A stretch of DNA of 32,000 nucleotides from assembly GCA_963786765.1 (NCBI GenBank), contig CAWBAJ010000022.1, positions 42,297-74,296 on the forward strand. The letters run 5' to 3'. A program made the translations under genes and the position numbers. Below are positions 4,609-15,609 of this stretch, piece after piece. Under the pieces are notes generated by a model. The model ran no database searches. It had not been told where the DNA came from and saw nothing but the letters and a program-made list of their open reading frames with translations. Origin of the DNA: an uncultured Actinomycetota bacterium. Its GTDB lineage: Bacteria; Actinomycetota; Actinomycetes; Actinomycetales; Kineosporiaceae. The first letter of the stretch is position 1; each line of letters starts with the position of its first letter.

Positions 4609-5388
4609 TCAGGCCGGAAGAAGGCCGGTAAGGACGGCGGGGCCCGTCCGGGCCGGGTTGTTGTCCGGTTCCAAGGTGATGACCATTCGCGAACCAGGGT
4701 TCTGCTGCAGGTCCCAGACGGTCCACATCCTGACGTCAGCGGAGGTGCCGCCGGGCGGGATCTCGAATGAGCCCGCGGAGACGGCGTCCGGGTGCGACAC
4801 GGTGTCGTCCGTGCCGACGTACCAGCACTCGTAGTGCCCCTCCCCGTCAGGAACGGGCGAAAGGCCGCTCACGGTGAGTCGGACGGACCAGCCGTTGTCG
4901 GTGTTCTCGCCCACTGCCTCGCCGCGGGCAGGTCCGCCGTTCGGGGCCTGGAGAGCGATCGTCACGGTGGGCGGCGCGGACTGCCGGAGGGCCCAGATCC
5001 CGCCGCCGGCGGCGATCAGGACGGCGGCGGCTGCCGCCACGAGCCACGTCAGGGGACGGCGAGGGCGCCCCCGGCGCTCCGCCAGGCCCACCACGGGTGC
5101 GTCGCCGGCCTGAGCGACGGAACGGTGGACGGGCTGCTCGGCGGCTGCTTCCCGGACGGCGCGGAGCGTGCGCTCCTCGAGGCCGGGCGGCAGCTCGACA
5201 GGCGGTGCGGCCACGCCGAGGAGCGCGCGTGCCGGCCGCAACTCGCGGACCTCCTTGCGGCAGGCCTCGCAGGTCTCGAGGTGGGCGGCGAAGCGCTCGG
5301 CCTCCTGCGGGTCCAGAGCACCCAGCACCCAGGCGGCGGCGTCAGCGTGCGGGCCCGGCCCCTCGAGCTCCGGTCGCGGCTCAGACAT
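4609..5388 (-). CDS. Membrane-spanning zinc-binding (ZAS-type, RskA-like) anti-sigma factor
   Basis: The protein starts MSEPRPELEG... and carries an H-x3-C-x2-C motif (AAHLETCEACRKEV). It has one TM helix (LTWLVAAAAAVLIAAGGGIWAL) and an extracytoplasmic C-terminal domain. Start ATG 5388..5386 overlaps the sigma-gene stop (ATGTCTGA, 8-nt overlap). The 15 upstream codons in the ORF track (MACARCARACRREGS) are treated as non-coding. Confidence 0.8.
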   Translation of the reverse strand: MSEPRPELEGPGPHADAAAWVLGALDPQEAERFAAHLETCEACRKEVRELRPARALLGVAAPPVELPPGLEERTLRAVREAAAEQPVHRSVAQAGDAPVVGLAERRGRPRRPLTWLVAAAAAVLIAAGGGIWALRQSAPPTVTIALQAPNGGPARGEAVGENTDNGWSVRLTVSGLSPVPDGEGHYECWYVGTDDTVSHPDAVSAGSFEIPPGGTSADVRMWTVWDLQQNPGSRMVITLEPDNNPARTGPAVLTGLLPA

Positions 5389-5950
5389 CGAACCCTCGCG
5401 CCTGCAGGCCCGCGCGCAGCGCGCGCAGGCCATGGAACATCCGCGTCTTCACCGTTCCGAGCGGGATGCCGAGCCGCTGCGCGATCTCCGACTGGGTCAT
5501 GCCCTCGTCGTAAGCCAGCGCGAGAACCTCGCGCTGGGGCGCGCTCACGCCGTCCAGCGCCTCGCGGACGACGAGGCTGTCCATCAGCTGGTCGACGTTG
5601 TCCTCGACCGGCGGCAGGAACACGTCCTCGACAGGTCCGTGGACCCGCGACGACGGTCGTCGCCGGACGTCGGTTGCCACGCTGCGCGCGATCACGAACA
5701 GGTAGGCGCCCACGGTCCCTCGTTGCGGATCGAAACGGGAAGCCGTTCGCCAGAGCCGCACGAACGTCTCCTGCACGACCTCCTCGGCCAGCCCAGAGTC
5801 CGCCAGCAGGCGCAGGGCGAACCCGTAGATCCGTCCGGAGTAGCGCCGGAACAGCTCCGCGACGGGGGCGCCGTCGTCGCCGGCCGCCATGCGCGCGACG
5901 AGTTCGGCGTCCTCGCGTGCCAGCTGCTCTCGCGCATCCTCGCCTACCAT
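5381..5950 (-). CDS. ECF (group IV sigma-70) RNA polymerase sigma factor
   Basis: Region 2 reads ELFRRYSGRIYGFALRLLADSGLAEEVVQETFVRLWR. Region 4 HTH reads REVLALAYDEGMTQSEIAQRLGIPLGTVKTRMFHGLRALR. I chose the start at MVGEDAREQ (ATG 5950..5948); the longer ORF-track extension to 6163 is Arg/Pro/Ala-rich with no sigma similarity. Confidence 0.85.
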   Translation of the reverse strand: MVGEDAREQLAREDAELVARMAAGDDGAPVAELFRRYSGRIYGFALRLLADSGLAEEVVQETFVRLWRTASRFDPQRGTVGAYLFVIARSVATDVRRRPSSRVHGPVEDVFLPPVEDNVDQLMDSLVVREALDGVSAPQREVLALAYDEGMTQSEIAQRLGIPLGTVKTRMFHGLRALRAGLQARGFDV

Positions 5951-6095
5951 CGACACCAGGTACCAGCCTCTAGTACGAGCCGTCCGCGTCGCCCGGTTCA
6001 GTTCCGCAGCGGCCGCACCCCGGACGGTTCGTGCCAGTCTAGGCAGGGGGTACGCCCGCGGCGGGGTCGCGCGGTCGCCCGCACCAGGAGGCCTG

Positions 6096-7745
6096 ATGCC
6101 GGACGAGCAGGAACCGGGGGCGACGCCAAAACCGTTCGGTTCCGCGGCCCGTAGTCCTGGCATGAGCGCAGCAGCGAGCGCACCCGCCCTGCCCCGGGTG
6201 ATCGGCGTGAGTGACCTCGTCGTGCTCCACCAGGGCGGGTTCGCGACCGTCTACCGCGGCTACCAGCAGCGCCTCGACCGCTGGGTGGCCGTCAAGGTGA
6301 TCGGGGACGCCGAGCCGGAGCGGGTCCGAGTCCGTCGCTTCGAACGCGAATGCGCGATCATGGGGCGGTTGTCGAGCCATCCGCACGTATTGCGCGTCCA
6401 CGACAGCGGTTACCTGCACGGCGGGGCACCGTACCTCGTCACCGAGCTGTGCCTGCGCGGCTCCCTGGCCGACCGGCTCGGCCGTGAGGGCCGGCTGCCC
6501 GCCGCGGACGTGGTCGCGCTCGCGCGGGCGATCAGCGGCGTGCTGGCGGCCATGCACGCGGACGGCCTGCTTCACCGTGACGTGAAGCCGGGCAACATCC
6601 TGTTCCGCGACTCCGGCGAGCCCGTGCTCGCCGACTTCGGCCTCGCGGTGCCGCTCTCTGAATCGGAGGCCGAGCCGCGCGCCGCCAGCCCGACGTTCAC
6701 CGCGCCCGAGGCACGGGACGCGGGCAGCTGGACGCCGGCCGCCGACGTCCACGCCCTCGGGACCACACTGCGCATTGCGCTCGGTGGTACCAGCGGAACG
6801 GACCAGGACGCCGGCATGCTGCATGCGCTCGTGACCCGGATGCTCGCGCCGGACCCGTCCGCCAGGCCGACCGCCGCGGAGGTCGTCGCCGAACTCGGGG
6901 CTTCTCCCGTGACCACCAGCGGCACGGCGGACCGATCGGTGGCAGACGGCCCGTTCCCGGCCCTCCGTCCGCTGCAGGCCCCCGGCCCGCTCCCGCCCGG
7001 GTCGAGCGCCGTTATCGACGAACCGACGCAGGTGAAGGCGGCCGAGCCGCCCGATGGACGCCACTGGCCCCGTCGGGTCCCGCTCGTCGCCGCCATTCCC
7101 CTCGCCGTCCTCGTGGCGGTCGTCGCAACGTTCCTGCTGACCGGTCGGCCGGTGGGACCGGCTCCTCGTTCCGCCGCGTCCGTCGCGCCCACCGGGTTGG
7201 CACCCGCTCCCACTGCCGCTGCGCGCGGCGGCGGCACGGCCAGGACGCCGAGCGCCGCGCCGTCGGGTTCGCCCGCCGCCTCGTCGCCCGCCACCACCGC
7301 GGGTGACACCGCACCGGCCGGGTACCGATGGGTGGCGGCGGCGCAGGGACTGCGGGTGGCCGTGCCGCAGCGCTGGCCCCTGCACCCCGTACCCGGCACC
7401 GCGGAGCTGCGCGCCGTCGATCCGCAGCACCCGGCGCGGTTCGTCCAGGTCGGCGGTTACCGCCCGGGGCACACCAGCCAGCTGGCACGGGTGCGCGGGT
7501 ACGCCTCGACCGAGAGCGCGGGATACCGGCAGATCCACCTCGAGCAGGTCGGCTACGGCGCCTCGCCGGACGCCGTCGACTGGGAGTACATCTACCTGGC
7601 CGGCGGCGCGGACCGGCATGCGGAGGGCCGGTACTGGCGGCTGGGCGGCGCCGAGTACGTCGTGTATGCGAGTGCACCCGCGGCGGACTGGTCCGGAATG
7701 CGACGCGTGTTCGCCGTCCTCGTCGCGACGGCACGCCCGCACTGA
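6096..7745 (+). CDS. Transmembrane Hanks-type Ser/Thr protein kinase with extracytoplasmic C-terminal domain
   Basis: ATG 6096 is preceded by AGGAG (6086-6090). Kinase motifs are GGFATVY, VAVKV, HRDVKPGNILF, DFGLA and SPTFTAPE. A TM helix (VPLVAAIPLAVLVAVVATFLL) is followed by an Ala/Pro/Ser linker. The ~140-aa outer domain begins GLRVAVPQRWPL. Divergent from the ECF sigma gene. Confidence 0.85.
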   Translation: MPDEQEPGATPKPFGSAARSPGMSAAASAPALPRVIGVSDLVVLHQGGFATVYRGYQQRLDRWVAVKVIGDAEPERVRVRRFERECAIMGRLSSHPHVLRVHDSGYLHGGAPYLVTELCLRGSLADRLGREGRLPAADVVALARAISGVLAAMHADGLLHRDVKPGNILFRDSGEPVLADFGLAVPLSESEAEPRAASPTFTAPEARDAGSWTPAADVHALGTTLRIALGGTSGTDQDAGMLHALVTRMLAPDPSARPTAAEVVAELGASPVTTSGTADRSVADGPFPALRPLQAPGPLPPGSSAVIDEPTQVKAAEPPDGRHWPRRVPLVAAIPLAVLVAVVATFLLTGRPVGPAPRSAASVAPTGLAPAPTAAARGGGTARTPSAAPSGSPAASSPATTAGDTAPAGYRWVAAAQGLRVAVPQRWPLHPVPGTAELRAVDPQHPARFVQVGGYRPGHTSQLARVRGYASTESAGYRQIHLEQVGYGASPDAVDWEYIYLAGGADRHAEGRYWRLGGAEYVVYASAPAADWSGMRRVFAVLVATARPH

Positions 7746-7942
7746 GCATTCCTCCCGGTCGGCCCGCATTTACTGTCCGCGGCGGGGGCACAAAGAATGC
7801 GGAGCCGCTCGCCGAGCGCGTGAACCGATCCACGCGGGCGGGGCGGCGTAGAAGCTTTCGACAGGCCGCCTGCAGACGTTTCGGTGGCCGCACGAAACCA
7901 CACCGCACGAGTCGACGCGACATTCACGAGAGGACGGCGGTA

Positions 7943-8260
7943 ATGGCCACCTCCTTCGGATGCAATCCCCCCGCGGCGGTTCGAGCGGCCGGCGAGCTCG
8001 CCGCGATCCGGCAGGACGTGGCGAGCGCCGGGCAGCTCGACTCCGGATCGGGCGTCACCGGTTCCGACCGCATCGAGGCGGCGCTGCACGCGTTCTTCAC
8101 GGACTCGACGCAGAGCCGGCAGAACCTCGAGCACCTGCTCGACCGGGCCGTCGGAATGCTCCGCGGCCTCGCGACCGGCAGCACCGACCTGGACCGCAAC
8201 CTCGCTACGGCTCTGACGCCCGGCCGCACGACGGTCGCCGGTCCCGGCAGCCCGCGTTAG
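7943..8260 (+). CDS. Small (105 aa) predicted helical protein, first gene of the Rhs toxin operon; candidate T7SS targeting/partner protein
   Basis: ATG 7943 with GAGAGGA ~10 nt upstream. GC3 is high in this frame. There is no signal peptide or TM helix. The sequence is Ala/Leu/Asp-rich (..AAVRAAGELAAIRQDVASAG..RIEAALHAFFTDSTQSRQNLEHLLDRAVGMLRGLATGSTDLDRNLATAL..). The function is inferred from position only. Confidence 0.6.
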   Translation: MATSFGCNPPAAVRAAGELAAIRQDVASAGQLDSGSGVTGSDRIEAALHAFFTDSTQSRQNLEHLLDRAVGMLRGLATGSTDLDRNLATALTPGRTTVAGPGSPR

Positions 8261-8284
8261 CCCCCGCTTGGAAGAGAGGCAGCC

Positions 8285-8998
8285 GTGACCACCTCCACGA
8301 TCCTCCCCGCTGCGGTGATCGGATTCTCGCTGCGCGTCCCCGAGAGCTGGTACGAGTTCGACATCTGGCGGGCCACCCGCACCCGACACCTACCCCGCCT
8401 CGTCGAGGAGCGGGTGGCGCGGGTGCCGGAGCTGGCCCCTCGGGCGCAGGCCCTGGTGCGCCTCCTGCGCAGGGTCGCGGAGGATGCCGAGCGCGCCGGG
8501 GCGGTCTACTGCGCGGCTCTGGCCGAGCCGGTCGGCGTGGCAGGCTTCCTTACGGCGTCCTGCACCGTCCTGCAGACGCCGGGACCGGACGACCCGGCGC
8601 AGCGGAGCGTCGGGGCCATCGCCGCCGGCATCCCCGCGACCGGCGCGGCGCTCGGCGAACCGGGCGCACGCGAGGTGGTCCTCCTCGAGCACCCGGCAGG
8701 CCGCGGCGTCCGGGTCCGTGAGATCGCCCTCCTGGACGGCTGCGCCGACGGCGACGGCGGGACTCCGACCGGGCCGACGGAGCACGTCGTCATGCACACG
8801 CTGCTGCCCTCGCCCGGGTGGTCCGATGCACGCCGCGGCAGCTACGTCGTCGACCTCGTGCTCGCCAGCCCCCAGGTGCAGCTCGCCGCCCCGATGCTCG
8901 ACCTCTTCGACGTGATCAGCGACACCTTCCGCTGGATCCCCGCGCCTGAAGTGGACGAGCAGGAGACGGCTGCAGCGGGCGAAGGACGGGCGTCATGA
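8285..8998 (+). CDS. Hypothetical 237-aa protein coupled to the Rhs toxin gene; candidate chaperone/adaptor
   Basis: GTG 8285 with GAGAGG 6 nt upstream. Stop TGA 8996-8998 overlaps the Rhs ATG 8995 (ATGA). The N-terminus has an h-x-h-x-VP-x-x-W strand motif (GFSLRVPESWYEFDIW), which I associate with PsbP/Mog1/DUF1795-type folds. There is no signal peptide or TM helix. Confidence 0.6.
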   Translation: MTTSTILPAAVIGFSLRVPESWYEFDIWRATRTRHLPRLVEERVARVPELAPRAQALVRLLRRVAEDAERAGAVYCAALAEPVGVAGFLTASCTVLQTPGPDDPAQRSVGAIAAGIPATGAALGEPGAREVVLLEHPAGRGVRVREIALLDGCADGDGGTPTGPTEHVVMHTLLPSPGWSDARRGSYVVDLVLASPQVQLAAPMLDLFDVISDTFRWIPAPEVDEQETAAAGEGRAS

Positions 8999-11900
8999 AC
9001 GACTGGAGCGTCCTCGGTCTGCCCGGCGACCCGACCCCCGGCGACCCCGCGGGCACGAGCGCACTGGCCGCCCGGCTGCGCCGCGAGGCCGACCGGGCTC
9101 ACAGCAACGACGTCCGGTTGCGGGCGATCGCCGCCGGCAGCAGCGACCTGGCTCTGCTCGGCGACTACGCACCGAAGTACCGCGACGCGCTCGCCGAACT
9201 ACCGGGCGAGGTCGGCAAGCTCCAGAAGGCGTTCTGCGGTGCGGGGGACGCGCTCGCGACGTACGCCGACCAGCTGAGCCAGGCCAAGGCGCGCGCGGCC
9301 ACAGCCCTGCAGGAGGGCGAGGACGCCGACGCGCGCTACCACGGCGCGATGAACGAGCTCCGGGCCGCGCTGCCAGGCCCGCGGTCCGCGCTGCTCTCCA
9401 GCGGGCTGGGCCTCACCCCGCTCGCGCTCGCCGCCGCAACCGCCGGGCTCGACCCGGGCACGACGGCGACCGTGCAGTCCGCGGCGGCGCGCGCCCGCAC
9501 CGCTGCAGCCGATCGGGACGCCGCCCGCAGCCTGGCCGATCAGGCTGCGGCGCTGCGCGGGGACGCCGAGGCGCGCTGCGTCGACGGCGTCAACGCCGCC
9601 CTCGACGGCAGCGGCATCAAGGACAAGACCTGGTGGGAGCGAGCCTGGGACCGCGCGACGGCACCCTTCAGCTCGTGGGACGCGTTCGTCTCCCTGTGCC
9701 GAACTGTCGCGATCATCGCGGGGACGGTCGCGCTGTTCATCTCCGGCCCGATCGGCCTGGCGCTCGTCGCGATCGCCCTGATCGCGAGCGCGGTCGTCGT
9801 GCAGGACACGGTGACGAAGTTCGCCCAGGGCCGGGCGACGCTCCTGGACGTCGGACTGGACACCCTCGGCCTGATCCCGGGCGAGGAGGGGGTCGGCGAC
9901 CTCGCCCGGCTCGGTCCCGGCGCGCTCGGCCTGGCCCGCGACCTGCCGTCCGCCGGCCGCGCCGTCACCGGGCTGCTGAGGAGCGGCCGCGCGGCGCTGC
10001 CCGCGATCCGCGACGTCCTCGGTGACCTGCGCCAGAACGCGATCCCGGCAGCCAAGCGGTTCCTGAAGATCGACCCGATCGACATGGTCACCGGCGAGAT
10101 GGTGATGCAGGAGACCGACGTCCGGCTGCCCGGAACCCTGCCGCTGGTGCTGAGCCGGACCCACGCCTCCTCCTACCGTGCCGGGCGCTGGTTCGGCCGG
10201 TCCTGGACGTCGACCCTCGACCAGCGGCTCGAGGTCGACGGCGGCGGGGTGCTCTTCGCCGGCGAGGACGGCGTGCTGCTCGCGTTCGCACTGCCTGCCG
10301 AGGGCGCCGCCGTCGAGCCGTACGAGGGGCCACGTCTGCAGCTGAGCCGTGAGGGCGAGCACTACCGGCTGCTCGACCCGCAGACCGGACGAACGCTGAC
10401 CTTCGCGGCCGCCGGCGCCGAGCCCGGCGTGCTGCCGCTGCGGTCGATCAAGAACAGGAACGGCGACCGGATCGAGATCTCCTACGACGTCACCGGCATG
10501 CCCGTCGTCGTGCGGCACAGCGGCGGCTACGCCGTCGGTGTCGACACCTCAGCCGGGCTCGTGACGGGGCTGCGGCTGCTCGGGGCCGACCGGGACGGCG
10601 ACGTCGTCCTCGCGCGCTACGACTACGACGGCGCCGGCCGGCTGATCGCCGTCACGGACACCTCCGGCGTGGCGCTGCGGCTGGAGTACGACCCGGCCGG
10701 CCGGATCGTCGGCTGGCACGACCGCATCGGCACGTCGTACCGGTACGGCTACGACGCCCGGGGGCGCGTCGTGTGGACGTCCGGCTCGGCGGGGTGCCTG
10801 GACGGCACGCTGCGCTACGACGAGGAGCAGCGGACGACGACCGTCGTCGACTCCCTCGGCGCCACCTGGAAGTACGCCTACAACGAGGACCTGCAGGTGG
10901 TCCGCGAGGTCGACCCGCTCGGGGGCGTGACCCGGTACGCGTGGGATCGCTACGACCGGCTGCTGATGCACGAGGACGCGCTCGGCGCCGTCACCCGGCA
11001 CACGTACGACGAGGCCGGCGACCTGATCCGGATCACCCGCCCCGACGGCGCCACGTTCGCCGTCAGCTACGACGAGCACCACCTCCCCGCCGTCGTCAGA
11101 CGGCCCGACGGCGGCGTCGAGCGACGCGTGCACAGCAGCGCGGGGAACCTCGTCGCGGTCACCGATCCTGCCGGCGCCGCCACCCGGTTCGGGTACGACG
11201 AGCGCGAGCACCTGGCAAGCGTCACGGACGCCGCCGGCGGCCTCACGGTCGTCAGGTGTGACGCCGCCGGGCTGCCGTTCGCCGTCACCGATCCGGCCGG
11301 CCGGACGTCGCGGTGCTCCCGCGACCGGGCCGGACGCGTCACGGCGGTGACGGACCCCGTCGGCCGCACCACGCTCTTCACGTGGACGGACGCCGGCCAG
11401 CCGGCCTCACGCACGCTGCCGTCCGGCCGGACCGAGCGGTGGGACCACGACGCCGAGGGCAACCTCATCGGTCACACCGACCCGGACGGGCACCGCACGA
11501 CCGTCGAGTACACGTGGTTCGACCTGCCGGCGTCGGTCACCGATCCCGACGGGGCGCGCCGCGTCTTCGGCTACGACACCGAGCTCCGCCTCGTCGCCGT
11601 CACGGACGCCGCCGGCCTCGTCTGGCGCTACGAGCGCGACGCCGCCGGCCGGATCGTCCGTGAGCTCGACCTCGACGGCCGCGAGCTGCGCTACGAGCGG
11701 GACCCGGTGGGCCGGCTGACGGCGCAGGTGAACGGCGCCGGGGAGCAGGTCTCGTACCGGCGCGACGTGCTCGGCCGGGTGGTGATGCGGGACCATGACG
11801 GGCTCACGGACGCGTTCGGCTACGACGCGATGGGCCGGCTGCTCCGGGCGACCACGGCCGATGCGGAACTGGGGTTCGAGTACGACCCGGCGGGCCGGGT

Positions 11901-13461
11901 GCTCACCGAGACGGTCGGGGGCCGGGCCCTGACGTCGAGCTACGACGGGGCGGGACGCCGGGTGCGGCGCAAAACGCCCTCTGGTGTCGTCAGCGCATGG
12001 ACGTTCGACGAGGCCTCGCAGCCGCTCGGCCTCGTCGCAGGACCGGGACGGCTCGAGTTCGGGCACGACGCCGGCGGCCGCGAGTCGTCGATGCGGCTGG
12101 GCGAGGCGCTGGTGACGCGCACATTCGACGCCGACGGGCGGCTGCATGCGCAGCGGGTCTCGGTCGGCGAGCGGCGTCTCGTCGACCGGGCCTACCGGTA
12201 CCGCGGCGACGGGTCCCTCACGGGGATCGACGATCCTCTCGCCGGTTCGGTGGCGTTCGACCTGGATCCCGTCGGGCGCATCACGGCCGCCTCGTCCGGA
12301 GGCTCGCGCGAGCGTTTCGCCTACGACGTCGCCGGGCGGCCGCTGGCCGGCGGCGTGCCGTCGTACGAGGGCACCCGAATTCGGCGGGTGGGCAGGACCA
12401 GCTACGGCTACGACTGCCAGGGCCGGATGATCTGGCGGCGGACCCGGACCCTCGACGGGCAGCGCCGGGAGTGGACGTACGCCTGGGACGCCCTCGACCG
12501 CCTCGTCGCCGTCACGACACCGGGGGGCGGTCGCTGGCGCTACCTCTACGACGCCCTCGGGCGGCGGGTCGGCAAGCGGCGCACGGACGGCGAGGGCCGC
12601 GTGGTCGAGCGCGTCGACTACACCTGGGACGGCGCGGTGCTGGCCGAACAGGTACGCCGGTTCCCGGGTCGCGCCACGGCCACCACGTGGGACTGGCGGC
12701 CCGGCACCTTCCGGCCCGTCTCCCAGACCGACCGGGTCGGACTGACGGTCGACGACGTCGCGGACGCGCCGCAGTCATGGGTCGACGAGCAGTTCCACGC
12801 CATCGTCACCGACCTCGTCGGGACACCCACCCAGCTCGTGGACGCCGAGGGTCGCGTCGCCTGGCAGGCCCGGACGTCGCTCTGGGGCGCGCACATCGGC
12901 GAGGGCGCGGACGGCGTCCTGTCGTGCCCGCTGCGCTTTCCCGGCCAGATCGCGGACGACGAGACGGGCCTGCATTACAACTACTTCCGCTACTACGACC
13001 CGGACAGCGGCCGGTACGTCTCGGCCGACCCCATCGGCCTCCTTGGCGGCATCGACCCACACGCCTACGTCCGCAACCCGACGACATGGACAGACCCGCT
13101 CGGCCTGGCGCCGTGCGACGTGGCCGGAGGTGCCGCGAACGCGGCCGACGGCGTCAGACTTGCCCAGCAGCTCACATCGGAGGAGGCCGGCTCGCTGTTC
13201 ACCGGCACGGGTGGCCTCCGGGAGGACGTGATGGCGTCGTCGCGGCTGATCATTCCCGGTGTCGACCTCGACAACTCGGAAGTCATCGCGGAGCTGACCT
13301 CCGACGGGAGCAGGATCGAGGACTGGGGCAAGTACGCCACACCGTCGTTCCGCTCGCCCTCAGGAAAGTTCCAGGTGCACTTCTACTACAACGACACGAC
13401 CAGCACCGTCAATTACAACATCGACTACAAAGCGAAGTTCCAGGGAGGCGGCAGGCGGTGA
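8995..13461 (+). CDS. Rhs/YD-repeat polymorphic toxin with N-terminal T7SS-substrate-like helical domain, TM helices and 117-aa variable C-terminal toxin domain
   Basis: GAAGGA lies 8 nt upstream of ATG 8995. aa 1-~130 are helical with no Sec/Tat signal (MNDWSVLGLPGDPTPGDPAGTSALAARLRREADR...GDALATYADQLSQAKARA). This matches my memory of the 'putative T7SS-secreted protein' N-terminal domain of actinobacterial toxins. A hydrophobic stretch spans aa 231-269 (nt 9685-9801). A DUF6531-like segment reads DPIDMVTGEMVMQETDVRLPGTLPLVLSRTHASSY..GRSWTS. There are many YD repeats (YDYDGAGRL, YDPAGRIV, YGYDARGRV...). The Rhs core end reads PLRFPGQIADDETGLHYNYFRYYDPDSGRYVSADPIGLLGG..NPTTWTDPLGL. The unique tail occupies aa 1372-1488 (nt 13108-13458). 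Confidence 0.92.
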   Translation: MNDWSVLGLPGDPTPGDPAGTSALAARLRREADRAHSNDVRLRAIAAGSSDLALLGDYAPKYRDALAELPGEVGKLQKAFCGAGDALATYADQLSQAKARAATALQEGEDADARYHGAMNELRAALPGPRSALLSSGLGLTPLALAAATAGLDPGTTATVQSAAARARTAAADRDAARSLADQAAALRGDAEARCVDGVNAALDGSGIKDKTWWERAWDRATAPFSSWDAFVSLCRTVAIIAGTVALFISGPIGLALVAIALIASAVVVQDTVTKFAQGRATLLDVGLDTLGLIPGEEGVGDLARLGPGALGLARDLPSAGRAVTGLLRSGRAALPAIRDVLGDLRQNAIPAAKRFLKIDPIDMVTGEMVMQETDVRLPGTLPLVLSRTHASSYRAGRWFGRSWTSTLDQRLEVDGGGVLFAGEDGVLLAFALPAEGAAVEPYEGPRLQLSREGEHYRLLDPQTGRTLTFAAAGAEPGVLPLRSIKNRNGDRIEISYDVTGMPVVVRHSGGYAVGVDTSAGLVTGLRLLGADRDGDVVLARYDYDGAGRLIAVTDTSGVALRLEYDPAGRIVGWHDRIGTSYRYGYDARGRVVWTSGSAGCLDGTLRYDEEQRTTTVVDSLGATWKYAYNEDLQVVREVDPLGGVTRYAWDRYDRLLMHEDALGAVTRHTYDEAGDLIRITRPDGATFAVSYDEHHLPAVVRRPDGGVERRVHSSAGNLVAVTDPAGAATRFGYDEREHLASVTDAAGGLTVVRCDAAGLPFAVTDPAGRTSRCSRDRAGRVTAVTDPVGRTTLFTWTDAGQPASRTLPSGRTERWDHDAEGNLIGHTDPDGHRTTVEYTWFDLPASVTDPDGARRVFGYDTELRLVAVTDAAGLVWRYERDAAGRIVRELDLDGRELRYERDPVGRLTAQVNGAGEQVSYRRDVLGRVVMRDHDGLTDAFGYDAMGRLLRATTADAELGFEYDPAGRVLTETVGGRALTSSYDGAGRRVRRKTPSGVVSAWTFDEASQPLGLVAGPGRLEFGHDAGGRESSMRLGEALVTRTFDADGRLHAQRVSVGERRLVDRAYRYRGDGSLTGIDDPLAGSVAFDLDPVGRITAASSGGSRERFAYDVAGRPLAGGVPSYEGTRIRRVGRTSYGYDCQGRMIWRRTRTLDGQRREWTYAWDALDRLVAVTTPGGGRWRYLYDALGRRVGKRRTDGEGRVVERVDYTWDGAVLAEQVRRFPGRATATTWDWRPGTFRPVSQTDRVGLTVDDVADAPQSWVDEQFHAIVTDLVGTPTQLVDAEGRVAWQARTSLWGAHIGEGADGVLSCPLRFPGQIADDETGLHYNYFRYYDPDSGRYVSADPIGLLGGIDPHAYVRNPTTWTDPLGLAPCDVAGGAANAADGVRLAQQLTSEEAGSLFTGTGGLREDVMASSRLIIPGVDLDNSEVIAELTSDGSRIEDWGKYATPSFRSPSGKFQVHFYYNDTTSTVNYNIDYKAKFQGGGRR

Positions 13462-13823
13462 GAGTCCGTTGCACCAGACTTGTGAGCCCACTCGACGGCT
13501 CGGAGCAGACGAGGAGCCTGTGGGTCGAGGTCGGGCGTGAGTACCAGGTGCTCAGCGTGCTGGTGGACCCTCGCGGGCGTGTCCGAGTTCAGGTTCTCGA
13601 CGACGACAGGGCACCCAGCTACTGGCCCGCCGAGATGTTCGAGACGACGGACGAGAGGGTCCCCGCCAACTGGGTGGCACGGCTGGACGGTCGCGGTGTC
13701 CTGAAGCTGGCTCCCACGTCCTGGTTGCGCGCAGGATTCTGGGAGGACTATTTCGACGGACGTCCGGACGCGATGGCACAGTTCGAGCGTGAACTGCCCG
13801 CCATACTCCAGAGCGAGACGTGA
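13458..13823 (+). CDS. Candidate cognate immunity protein (121 aa)
   Basis: GTG 13458 overlaps the Rhs stop TGA 13459-13461 (GTGA), with GGAGG at 13445-13449. An alternative GTG lies at 13482. The product is acidic and cytoplasmic, with no TM helix or signal peptide (..SLWVEVGREYQVLSVLVDPRGRVRVQVLDDDRAPSYWPAEMFETTDERVPANWVARL..GFWEDYFDG..). It sits exactly where Rhs immunity genes sit. The 487 upstream codons of the ORF-track entry 11997..13823 are a shadow frame of the Rhs gene. Confidence 0.7.
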   Translation: MRVRCTRLVSPLDGSEQTRSLWVEVGREYQVLSVLVDPRGRVRVQVLDDDRAPSYWPAEMFETTDERVPANWVARLDGRGVLKLAPTSWLRAGFWEDYFDGRPDAMAQFERELPAILQSET

Positions 13824-14022
13824 GCCGATCGCTTCGGCAGGGGGCGACACCGCGGGGACCCTGGCCCACGGCTGGTTCGGGCGGCTACACGCCGAGTCGC
13901 CGTTGCCCAGCCCCTCGGCGAGTCGGCTCAGGGTCGATCGCCAGAGTCAGGCACGGGCCGCGATCCCGGGGATCCCGGCACGGCGCATCATCATCTCGTT
14001 CGCGTTGTGGCCGACCTCATGG

Positions 14023-14242
14023 TCAGCTGCAGGCCAGCTCGGCCCGGCGGTGGCAGTACATGCCATCGAAGGCGTCGTGGACCTGGCGGCCTTGGTCCAG
14101 CAGCAGTGCGCCCCCGATGTTGTTCGCTGTCGATCGCCACGGTGACCCGACCCAGGCCGCGCTCGCGCGGCACCAGGTCCGTCTTGGAGCCCTTCTCTAA
14201 CCGTCCCACGCTCGCACGGCTCAGCTGCCTGTCCAGGAACAT
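14023..14242 (-). pseudogene. Short frameshifted ORF of unknown family (possible HTH remnant)
   Basis: Two adjacent minus-strand frames both show high GC3. The first reads MFLDRQLSRASVGRLEKGSKTDLVPRERGLGRVTVAIDSE. After a 1-nt shift near 14118 the second reads NNIGGALLLDQGRQVHDAFDGMYCHRRAELACS*. LSRASVGRLEKG resembles an XRE-type recognition helix, but no family was recognised. Confidence 0.25.
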
Positions 14243-14400
14243 CGGTGCCCGCGACCGGTTCGCCTATCGGCAACCCGATGTGATCCAGAGATCCTTCGTG
14301 CTGACGTCCTGCACGGACAGCTGATTCGACGCCGCCGAATCATGTCCGACCGTCGGTTGAACCAGAACCTACGGCCGGACTCATGCTCGGAGCGGAGAGT

Positions 14401-15063
14401 CTAGGACCCGGGCTCGATAATCACATAGTACGGAAAGACGTCACACCCTCCCTTTCCGACGAATGAAGGTGCCGTGCGTTCCCTGATGTGCACATGGAGC
14501 ACAGCGTGGCCGTTGCTTCCCCAGGGGATACTGATCGGATGAGCGGGGCTGGCCCCGTAGCGAATCGGATCATTAGTTATCTGGTCGGCATAGTCGAATG
14601 TGTTGAAGTTGCCATAGTTGTTCCACGCCCCTTGGGGATAGTTATGATTACCGTCCTCCATGGATGCTTCTGCGTACATGTAGCGCTGTCGCCCCACATC
14701 GTACTGAAGCCAGAGCCCGGTCAGCTGGAAGCCAGAAGCGGTGCGGACGACGGCCAACTGGGCATGGATAACGGCTCGCGTGTAGGGGTACTCACTGCAT
14801 GCCACTTCGTTCTGTTCCGGGAAGGCTTGAAGATAGACCTCGCGGCCGATATCGGCACGCGGTATTGAGCAACGCTGCGTGTTGAACGGCGGCTGACTGG
14901 TCGCATCGTGGCATGCAAGGCTTGGCGAGGCTGCCAGCGCAGGCGTTGTCGGCAGCACCAGGAGACCGGTCAGCGCGACGAGGGTGGCTGCGACGAGATA
15001 CTTCCCGACCGCTGACGCACGGCCAGAACGGTTGAGGGTCGCGCCTTGAGCAGAGTTCAGCAC
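14401..15063 (-). CDS. Secreted hypothetical protein (220 aa), compositionally foreign
   Basis: GTG 15063 has a strong AAGGAGAGG ~10 nt upstream. A Sec signal peptide (KYLVAATLVALTGLLVLPTTPALA/ASPS) precedes a mature part with 4 Cys that is rich in Tyr/Asn/Gly (..NHNYPQGAWNNYGNFNTFDYADQ..). My hand counts of three 60-nt lines in this gene gave 55%, 60% and 42% GC, against 80% for a line counted in the Rhs gene. No family was recognised. Confidence 0.75.
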   Translation of the reverse strand: MLNSAQGATLNRSGRASAVGKYLVAATLVALTGLLVLPTTPALAASPSLACHDATSQPPFNTQRCSIPRADIGREVYLQAFPEQNEVACSEYPYTRAVIHAQLAVVRTASGFQLTGLWLQYDVGRQRYMYAEASMEDGNHNYPQGAWNNYGNFNTFDYADQITNDPIRYGASPAHPISIPWGSNGHAVLHVHIRERTAPSFVGKGGCDVFPYYVIIEPGS

Positions 15064-15609
15064 CTTGGAACGCCTCTCCTTCTTCTGTGTGTCGTACTCA
15101 AAGTAGACTATGCCGAAACTCGGGCTTTCGCTTGATGACGCTATCCGTCAGCGAGCCGCATCGTAAAGGCGATTCGACAGTTGTCGAATGAGTCGGTCTC
15201 AGGACGTGCGTGCCAGATCAGTCTCGAGATGTGGGTGACGCGTCCGGCTGGACAATCCTGAGGCTCGGATTCCAGCGGCCGTCGGATCTGGTGCGAATCG
15301 CCGCCGGACACGCGCGCAGGTAGGTCCTGACGTGAGACCGGGCAACTCGCTGCCTGGCTGCAAGCAAATCCTGACCGGCCAGGTCACGGTGCCCGGGTGC
15401 CAAGTGCCGCGTGCGCGTATCGGTGCCGCTCGCCTGGGCTTCCAGGATGCTTGGCGAAACGGCCTCGGCTGATAACTGGCACTGTGGCGGTGAGTCGCGC
15501 CGGCCTAGGCCCGCGCGGGCCCCCTGAGGACACCTCCGCTCATGCCGATGACCGGGCGAGCGGGGATCGACCGGTCGGCCGGTCCGCATCCACCGGGTCA
15601 CCATCACGG

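Follow-up and report, generated by a model that had tools for sequence, protein, structure and literature searches.

A probable toxin-immunity pair of a widespread, unnamed family at the end of an actinobacterial Rhs gene

The stretch of DNA analysed here (the window) comprises 32,000 nucleotides, positions 42,297 to 74,296 of the forward strand of contig CAWBAJ010000022.1 (assembly GCA_963786765.1), from an uncultured Actinomycetota bacterium of the Kineosporiaceae. It contains a gene for a 1488-amino acid (aa) Rhs/YD-repeat protein, and the subject of this report is the last 117 aa of this protein (the tail) together with the 121-aa open reading frame (ORF) that overlaps its stop codon. We put the probability at roughly 80% that the tail and the 121-aa protein form a toxin-immunity pair belonging to a widespread family that neither Pfam nor NCBIfam names and of which no relative has a solved structure. 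Sequence comparison shows the tail to be a domain of its own, found again and again at the C-terminal end of diverse toxin-delivery proteins, and the 121-aa gene to be translationally coupled to it and to travel with it. The assignment of the 121-aa product as the cognate immunity protein of the tail is strongly supported by these comparisons. The toxin-immunity family appears new and is unannotated; the Rhs polymorphic toxin kind to which the carrier belongs is well known.

The Rhs tail and its overlapping immunity gene

The domain content of the 1488-aa protein was that of an Rhs carrier. Pfam detected RHS_repeat (PF05593, 4e-86, in 19 stretches), DUF6531 (1.5e-24, aa 360-431) and the RHS core (1.4e-11), and NCBIfam detected YD_repeat_2x (TIGR01643, 1.1e-82) and Rhs_assc_core (TIGR03696, 3.2e-23, aa 1297-1371). 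The PxxxxDPxGL self-cleavage motif of the Rhs core was read directly as NPTTWTDPLGL at 13075-13107, and by analogy with known Rhs proteins its DPLGL is the expected self-cleavage boundary. The core/tail boundary, the tail sequence and the coordinates given in an earlier note on this DNA, which had been made from the letters alone, were recovered unchanged (Table 1), the Rhs stop codon being the TGA at 13459-13461. Repeats that form a shell, a core with the cleavage motif, a variable and recurring C-terminal domain and a downstream immunity gene, which are features of Rhs/YD polymorphic toxins, were all present. The locus resembles the Rhs/YD toxins of Dickeya (RhsA/B) and Bacillus (WapA), the Rhs effectors of type VI secretion systems (T6SS) and TcC of the Tc toxins in its RHS repeats, its core ending in DPxGL, its short variable C-terminal toxin, the coupled immunity gene, the composition break at the core/tail junction and the occurrence of different tails on related cores. 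Unlike in those systems, the tail and the immunity protein belong to unannotated families, no T6SS signatures are seen in the high-GC actinobacterial host, the Rhs protein begins with a helical region and then what are probably two hydrophobic helices, and a gene for an EssC-type ATPase is close by.

The earlier note had described a tail with a single histidine that it could match to no toxin family and that lacked the HNH/AHH, deaminase and ADP-ribosyltransferase motifs. The tail was found to hold one His and one Cys, and the family searches agreed with the rest of that description. Neither the tail nor the 121-aa protein matched Pfam, NCBIfam, PHROGs or PADLOC at E ≤ 1, apart from one chance-level PHROGs match (0.29), and searches of the PDB sequences at E ≤ 10, with single sequences and with family profiles of both proteins, returned nothing relevant. 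When 44 members of the tail family were scanned singly against Pfam at E ≤ 10, no recurrent family was seen. A tblastn search of phage genomes with the tail gave no match, and no second or orphan toxin or immunity copy was found within the window. The tail was rejected as an HNH/AHH nuclease, a deaminase or an ADP-ribosyltransferase because their signature motifs, namely HNH/AHH, HxE...PCxxC and R-S-E or H-Y-E in that order, are absent and no Pfam match was obtained for the tail or the 44 members; furthermore, its AlphaFold model has no C-terminal helix after the strand that carries the His, unlike HNH/AHH domains, in which a helix follows. A pore former was also rejected, as the tail has no hydrophobic segments.

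The 121-aa protein has an isoelectric point (pI) of 4.88 and a net charge of -4.5, and its maximum 19-residue hydropathy of 0.45 indicated that it has no signal peptide. The earlier note had proposed this acidic, overlapping ORF as the immunity candidate, and its genomic context bears this out. A scan of one genome per species gave 28 loci with the tail domain, and at 25 of them an immunity homologue lay directly downstream of the toxin (profile E 1e-10 to 5e-67), the remaining three being contig ends or fragments. The 4-nucleotide overlap between toxin and immunity genes seen in the window recurred at 11 of these 25 loci. Since the domain is strictly C-terminal on unrelated carriers and is followed by the immunity homologue with this regularity, we take the tail as a separate toxin module and the 121-aa protein as its cognate partner. 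In an alignment of 31 immunity homologues the start MRVRC of the window copy was conserved as M-[KR]-V-[RK]-C, and the homologues further shared the motif GFWE-x-[YF]-[FH]-D; all were acidic (median pI 4.8), and none of the 31 had a signal peptide or lipobox. The divergence of toxin and immunity protein was correlated (r = 0.76), and none of 2000 permutations reached this value.

Orphan immunity homologues, with no toxin within 6 kb, were found in two places where the neighbours are other immunity-type genes, and such copies among small toxin/immunity-like genes are typical of immunity genes. One (6001-6345 of locus L110), on the Streptomyces longwoodensis plasmid NZ_CP107814.1, lies downstream of an SMI1/KNR4 (SUKH-type immunity) gene, at a distance of ~0.6 kb, and the other (6001-6378 of locus L111), in Burkholderia multivorans NZ_CP143551.1, lies inside an unannotated array of small toxin/immunity-like ORFs. 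The 121-aa protein itself gave no profile match to SUKH/SMI1, barstar, ImmD, ImmE5 or the Pfam Imm families in Pfam, NCBIfam, PADLOC or the PDB sequences. Its AlphaFold model was very confident (predicted local distance difference test, pLDDT, 92; predicted template modelling score, pTM, 0.83) and shows seven strands together with helices at the C-terminus; a Foldseek search of the PDB returned weak SH3/Tudor/PetP-like matches only (E 0.09-0.9).

These data also bear on whether the tail could be a non-toxic structural end of the Rhs protein, with the overlapping ORF unrelated or a spurious frame in GC-rich DNA. Long spurious ORFs are common in a window of 71.5% GC, the frame in question is open from 11997, and the GC content at third codon positions (GC3) of the ORF, 0.79, is below that of the surrounding genes. 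Against this stand the homologues with a conserved start placed directly after the toxin domain in several phyla, low-GC hosts included, as well as the confident immunity model and the movement of the tail between unrelated carriers. A structural end with a chance ORF beside it is, in our estimate, hardly credible, and the ORF was rejected as a spurious frame since it is conserved across phyla.

Family breadth, carriers and base composition

A full HMMER search of 1.84 billion cluster representatives with a four-sequence profile yielded 696 tail relatives at E ≤ 1e-3, 509 of them at E ≤ 1e-10, these counts being cluster representatives. In the best 150 of the 696, proteins whose lengths run from 65 to 4421 aa, the median distance between the end of the domain and the C-terminus was 1 residue. 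A word-indexed protein search had returned just 4 tail and 5 immunity relatives; because the full search gave 696, the tiny family suggested by the word-indexed search was a sensitivity artefact. The interpretation in the earlier note was supported in part: the toxin-immunity pair, the lack of an annotated family and the AT-richer module stood, with the qualification that the family is large.

The actinobacterial part of the 28 loci comprised Kribbella, Streptomyces, Kitasatospora, Bifidobacterium and several metagenome-assembled genomes, and the other hosts were Burkholderia, Paraburkholderia, Herbaspirillum, Variovorax, Pseudomonas, Gemmatimonadales and Oscillospiraceae. The carriers were equally diverse. 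Rhs proteins, with or without DUF6531, carried the domain in Actinomycetota, Gammaproteobacteria and Gemmatimonadales, CdiA/filamentous haemagglutinin proteins (Fil_haemagg with DUF6862; DUF637) in Burkholderia and Paraburkholderia, and a PT-HINT protein in Kitasatospora; further carriers were a teneurin-like YD protein and proteins with T7SS_signal, eCIS_core, SpvB+TcdB+Rhs, PA14+Rhs or NPCBM. An orphan CdiA C-terminal (CdiA-CT) module with the domain was found on the Campylobacter concisus plasmid pCCON31 (NC_009795.1; 5359-6896 of locus L029). This module is downstream of a filamentous haemagglutinin gene, and its immunity homologue is 203 aa long, with an extra cysteine-rich (zinc-ribbon-like) extension at the C-terminus. 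In Streptomyces glaucosporus (1375-2367 of locus L013) the reading frame that encodes the toxin domain has, further upstream, a match to a DDE_3 transposase segment, which suggests a transposase beside or fused to an orphan toxin cassette, or an over-extended ORF.

The swapping of tails expected in the earlier note was seen when related Rhs cores were compared. All 78 related cores from metagenomes (33-58% identity) carried other tails, of 33-196 aa, and neither this tail nor its immunity protein occurred among them (0 of 78). The closest genome, a metagenome-assembled Actinomycetota from Danish soil (L001), matched the window collinearly over 5221-13821, at ~89% identity. Its tail was 86% identical in DNA and 83% in protein and was followed by the same immunity gene, and the similarity ended two bases short of the end of the immunity gene, at 13821. 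This collinearity and its end point indicated that the cassette is stably associated with the Rhs gene in this lineage and lies at the edge of a variable region, and that 13824-15400 is a variable or inserted region.

The tail had been called visibly AT-richer than the repeat region, and a count confirmed it: GC content was 74.3% in the Rhs body, 64.7% in the tail, 65.3% in the 121-aa ORF and ~63% in the following 1.6 kb. Windows of 354 nucleotides inside the Rhs body had a mean of 74.5% (standard deviation 1.6) and a minimum of 70.3%. First codon positions accounted for most of the drop from Rhs body to tail (0.74 to 0.58), a reflection of amino-acid content; GC3 fell less, from 0.94 to 0.87, and went down to 0.79 in the 121-aa ORF. 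At 11 of 12 other loci with the module the tail and immunity genes were likewise below their carrier in GC3, for example 0.56 in the tail vs 0.86 in the carrier in Kribbella and 0.57 vs 0.85 in Burkholderia, and because of this recurrence the shift was taken as real and as a property of the toxin/immunity cassette. The stretch directly 3' of the immunity gene (13824-15400) is also low in GC (56-63%) and holds a minus-strand gene for a 220-aa protein (14401-15063) with a signal-peptide-like N-terminus and no family match. No tRNA genes were found in the window, and a promoter/terminator scan of the module and the low-GC stretch gave nothing bearing on the finding.

Tail structure and possible activity

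The AlphaFold2 model of the tail, built with 44 sequences and numbered aa 1-117 (Rhs aa 1372-1488), had a mean pLDDT of 80, with values in 10-residue blocks of 84 (aa 31-40), 94-96 (aa 41-80) and 85-95 (aa 81-110). The first 11 residues are disordered in the model; helices follow at 12-28, 39-43 and 57-63, with a strand at 46-50 before the third helix, and then a β-meander with strands at 73-77, 81-83, 86-95, 100-102 and 108-111. The earlier note had proposed a Foldseek search of both models; the tail proved to have no PDB relative, and for the immunity protein the yield was limited to the weak SH3-like matches described above. Among 350,542 PDB chains no solved relative of the tail was found (best E 0.11, template modelling score below 0.3), and among viral models there were only two matches, both uncharacterised (E 0.01-0.02, probability 1.00). 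In BFVD these are A0A8S5LX18, a 99-aa uncharacterised Siphoviridae protein, and A0A1V0SD22_2, a "putative hemagglutinin" from Indivirus ILV1, a giant virus, and going by the model comparison they may represent viral versions of this toxin fold or of one related to it.

Residue conservation was counted over 144 full-length tail domains. K1446, H1462, Y1464, N1466 and K1479 were 99% conserved; position 1477 was D in 97% and E in 3%, hence D or E in 100%; T1449 was T or S in 98%, W1444 was conserved in 95% and D1443 in 87%. The conserved polar residues lie on or beside the predicted strands 73-77, 86-95 and 108-111 of the tail. H1462, Y1464 and N1466 alternate along the long central strand and are therefore predicted to face one side, K1446 and K1479 are on other strands of the same predicted sheet, and T1449 comes just after its first strand.

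On this pattern of residues the tail could be read as a metal-dependent DNase, with D1443 and D1477-x-K1479 forming a PD-(D/E)xK-like site and H1462 and N1466 aiding metal binding. The acidic residue at 1477 with an invariant K two positions on is a literal (D/E)xK, D1443 is largely conserved, and PD-(D/E)xK-type CdiA toxins are known in Burkholderia. The predicted topology speaks otherwise: four strands lie between D1443 and D1477 and no helix occurs among the last five strands, which misfits the alpha-beta-beta-beta-alpha-beta core, and neither a restriction-endonuclease-like Foldseek match, though such folds are abundant in the PDB, nor a Pfam Tox-REase match was obtained. A PD-(D/E)xK nuclease was rejected since the predicted topology does not fit, and we regard a DNase of this type as improbable.

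The reading that we rank first is that the tail is a metal-independent endoribonuclease acting in the cytoplasm, an assignment drawn from anatomy and base rates rather than homology, to which we give somewhat less than an even chance. It was ranked first because the immunity protein is leaderless, the domain is small and without hydrophobic segments, no metal-site motif is seen, and conserved Lys, His, Tyr and Thr residues lie on or beside the sheet. The set of Lys, His, Tyr and Thr on or beside one sheet face looks like that of metal-independent ribonuclease (RNase) toxins, and the absence of a signal peptide in the 31 immunity homologues points to a cytoplasmic target. By analogy with known Rhs proteins, aspartyl self-cleavage by the Rhs core would cut off the tail after Leu1371, and the tail would be kept inside the YD-repeat shell. 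The whole Rhs protein would then leave the cell, for which the EssC-type type VII system encoded 4.4 kb upstream is a possible route, and the tail would be received by a neighbouring cell and act in its cytoplasm. K1446, H1462, Y1464, N1466, D1477 and K1479 are predicted to line one face of the C-terminal β-sheet, with which the tail would cleave RNA (tRNA, rRNA or mRNA) to give ends with a 2',3'-cyclic phosphate. The producer would be protected by the acidic immunity protein, a predicted SH3-like β-barrel with C-terminal helices, binding the tail one-to-one and covering its active face.

The earlier idea of a RelE/BECR-type RNase had been offered as a guess, and a reasonable guess it is. We compared the tail with BECR-fold RNase toxins, namely colicin D, colicin E5, RelE, barnase, the CdiA-CT of Escherichia coli NC101 and EC3006, and Ntox7/19/21/35/36/41/47-50. 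Like them, it has ~100 aa and, in its model, helices first and then an antiparallel β-meander, as well as conserved Lys/His/Tyr/Thr on or beside strands, no metal-binding motif, a cytoplasmic acidic immunity protein and the same range of carriers (Rhs, CdiA, HINT and type VII secretion system, T7SS); unlike them, it showed no sequence, profile or Foldseek similarity to any of the group. Conserved-residue patterns of the BECR clades are given in the toxin table of Zhang et al. 2012 (PMC3482391). The tail pattern K, H-x-Y-x-N, D-x-K matches none of the patterns in that table, and no matching motif or organism was found in the table and its supplement.

Several observations weigh against this endoribonuclease reading and the pairing and export on which it draws. 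The literature turned up no report of toxicity or binding for any family member; no BECR or other nuclease family appeared in Pfam for the tail (E ≤ 1) or the 44 members (E ≤ 10); and neither sequence, profile nor Foldseek search (best E 0.11) linked the tail to a PDB entry. In hhalign comparisons, which are a weak test here, the probability did not exceed 1% for RelE, YoeB, barnase, RNase T1 or MazF (≤0.2% for RelE, YoeB and barnase). The toxin domain is not consistently basic, its pI ranging from 4 to 10 (4.8 in the window copy), and a variable, often acidic pI speaks mildly against an RNase, being weaker than expected for a nucleic-acid binder. The correlated divergence of toxin and immunity protein could be explained by co-inheritance alone. 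The link to a type VII system is weak, with a T7SS_signal E value of 0.22 and unrelated regulatory genes between the EssC-type and Rhs genes.

Part of the same evidence would fit a toxic enzyme of an undescribed fold and activity other than an RNase, one that would modify or hydrolyse, for instance, a nucleotide cofactor, a translation-machinery protein or some other target in the cytoplasm, with immunity by binding. The core of the model is mostly at pLDDT 85-96 (aa 41-110) and yet found no Foldseek match among the PDB chains; the two uncharacterised viral proteins (E ~0.01-0.02) were the only matches, no profile matched in four libraries, and the toxin pI is variable and often acidic. We hold such an enzyme to be a tentative alternative that is unlikely to be correct. 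In its fullest form, which we put forward just as doubtfully, the tail may define a toxin superfamily that has a fold unlike any solved structure, a catalytic set of Lys, His-x-Tyr-x-Asn and Asp-x-Lys and a reaction new among interbacterial toxins, and that is accompanied by a new SH3-like immunity fold and spread over six or more phyla and six or more kinds of delivery carrier.

An action outside the cytoplasm, on the cell wall or membrane, was weighed as well. The relatives P0003 and P0004 (~200 aa) consist of a hydrophobic N-terminal leader, a linker and the tail domain alone, an arrangement that would fit an envelope toxin. Immunity proteins against envelope-acting toxins are normally exported, and neither the leaderless homologues nor the low hydropathy of the window copy is in keeping with this; moreover, the domain has no hydrophobic segments and rides on CdiA and extracellular contractile injection system (eCIS) carriers, which deliver into cells. 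We consider an envelope target very improbable, and a cytoplasmic endoribonuclease remains the reading that we favour.

The family also resembles the toxins PT1-PT9 and their immunity genes (PIM) of Nachmias et al. (bioRxiv 10.1101/2021.10.19.465003), which are likewise short unannotated C-terminal domains (~80-150 aa) borne by many carriers and paired, through synteny, with immunity genes of ~120 aa. It matches none of PT1-PT9 as far as their descriptions in that preprint allow, the full PT sequences not having been compared. In the preprint, crystal structures are reported for PT1 and PT7, their PDB codes still being placeholders, and the tail family gave no PDB sequence match at E ≤ 10. PT1 activity is described there as needing two His (H44 and H48), whereas the tail family has a single conserved His; the stretches that we translated from the PT5 and PT8 primers, GKFHTTKGEQY and PDTHYSKYKYENG, differ from GKFQVHFYYN of the tail; and PT2 and PT8 are stated to be restricted to Neisseriaceae and Leptospiraceae.

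Nothing in the tail/immunity finding contradicts current understanding. Unassigned Rhs tails are common, and a specialist would therefore not be surprised by one more. New enzymes and research tools have come from polymorphic toxin tails time and again, and the breadth of this family, the ~110-aa size of the domain, the confident models and a clear candidate active site of six polar residues make it a good experimental target. Characterising one pair would annotate hundreds of "hypothetical" genes, including those of Burkholderia, Campylobacter and Streptomyces.

Gene neighbourhood and delivery

The features of the window that bear on the cassette and its possible delivery are listed in Table 1. 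The regulatory cluster at 4609-7745 separates the ATPase gene from the Rhs gene.

Table 1. Coordinates of the Rhs toxin locus and its upstream neighbours in the window
Feature	Position	Strand	Basis or remark
EssC/EccC-type type VII secretion ATPase, N-terminal FHA domain, 1448 aa	259-4605	+	Pfam, NCBIfam
zf-HC2 anti-sigma factor	4609-5433	-	
ECF-type sigma factor	5381-6163	-	
Ser/Thr protein kinase	5889-7745	+	
~111-aa gene upstream of Rhs	7924-8260	+	No family match
237-aa gene, stop overlaps Rhs start (ATGA)	8285-8998	+	GC3 0.90 in frame; no family match
Rhs/YD-repeat carrier protein	8995-13461	+	1488 aa, ORF intact; Pfam and NCBIfam
Rhs N-terminal helical region, aa 1-230, possible secretion-targeting domain	8995-9684	+	
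Rhs hydrophobic segment, aa 231-269	9685-9801	+	Kyte-Doolittle 19-residue means 1.9-2.3
Rhs-associated core, aa 1297-1371	12883-13107	+	TIGR03696; ends with DPLGL at 13093-13107
Putative C-terminal toxin domain, aa 1372-1488, and stop codon, unannotated family	13108-13461	+	Residues encoded by 13108-13458
Stretch with six polar residues ≥97% conserved	13330-13431	+	Codons checked
Codon of K1446	13330-13332	+	
Codon of T1449	13339-13341	+	
Codon of H1462	13378-13380	+	
Codon of Y1464	13384-13386	+	
Codon of N1466	13390-13392	+	
Codon of D1477	13423-13425	+	
Codon of K1479	13429-13431	+	
GGGAGG ribosome-binding site of immunity gene	13443-13448	+	9 nucleotides before GTG; direct reading
Putative cognate immunity gene, 121 aa, acidic, predicted cytoplasmic	13458-13823	+	GTG start overlaps Rhs stop (GTGA)

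The ATPase matched Pfam FtsK_SpoIIIE (2.6e-42, three ATPase domains) and FHA (2e-10) and the NCBIfam models EssC (1.4e-96), EccCa (1.3e-83) and EccCb (4.1e-69), all three below their equivalog cut-offs. It is possible that this divergent type VII ATPase of a high-GC actinobacterium belongs to the machine that exports the Rhs protein. The N-terminus of the Rhs protein matched PF21725 T7SS_signal below threshold (E 0.22; 11.8 bits against a cut-off of 27), and the NCBIfam scan of aa 1-230 gave no match. The relative P0010 has a clear PF21725 T7SS_signal (2.1e-16) fused to the same toxin domain. By analogy, export of the Rhs protein through a type VII system is plausible. The two small genes immediately upstream of Rhs are candidates for an accessory or chaperone function, and position is what suggests this role for the 237-aa gene, which is kept in the closest genome at 88% DNA identity.

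A published parallel is the T7SSb essC8 locus of Listeria with the Rhs toxin LrhA (PMC10327511). There, as in the window, a Gram-positive Rhs toxin gene lies near an EssC-type ATPase gene together with a probable immunity gene and small accessory genes. The window differs in that the ATPase gene is 4.4 kb off and is separated from the Rhs gene by sigma, anti-sigma and kinase genes, the organism is an actinobacterium and T7SS secretion is presumed. It offers a case in which the exit of Rhs toxins from actinobacterial cells by way of an EssC-type type VII system could be tested. The hydrophobic segment at Rhs aa 231-269 probably forms two membrane-spanning helices, as judged from its hydropathy; it sits between the N-terminal helical region and DUF6531, which is odd in a presumed secreted protein.

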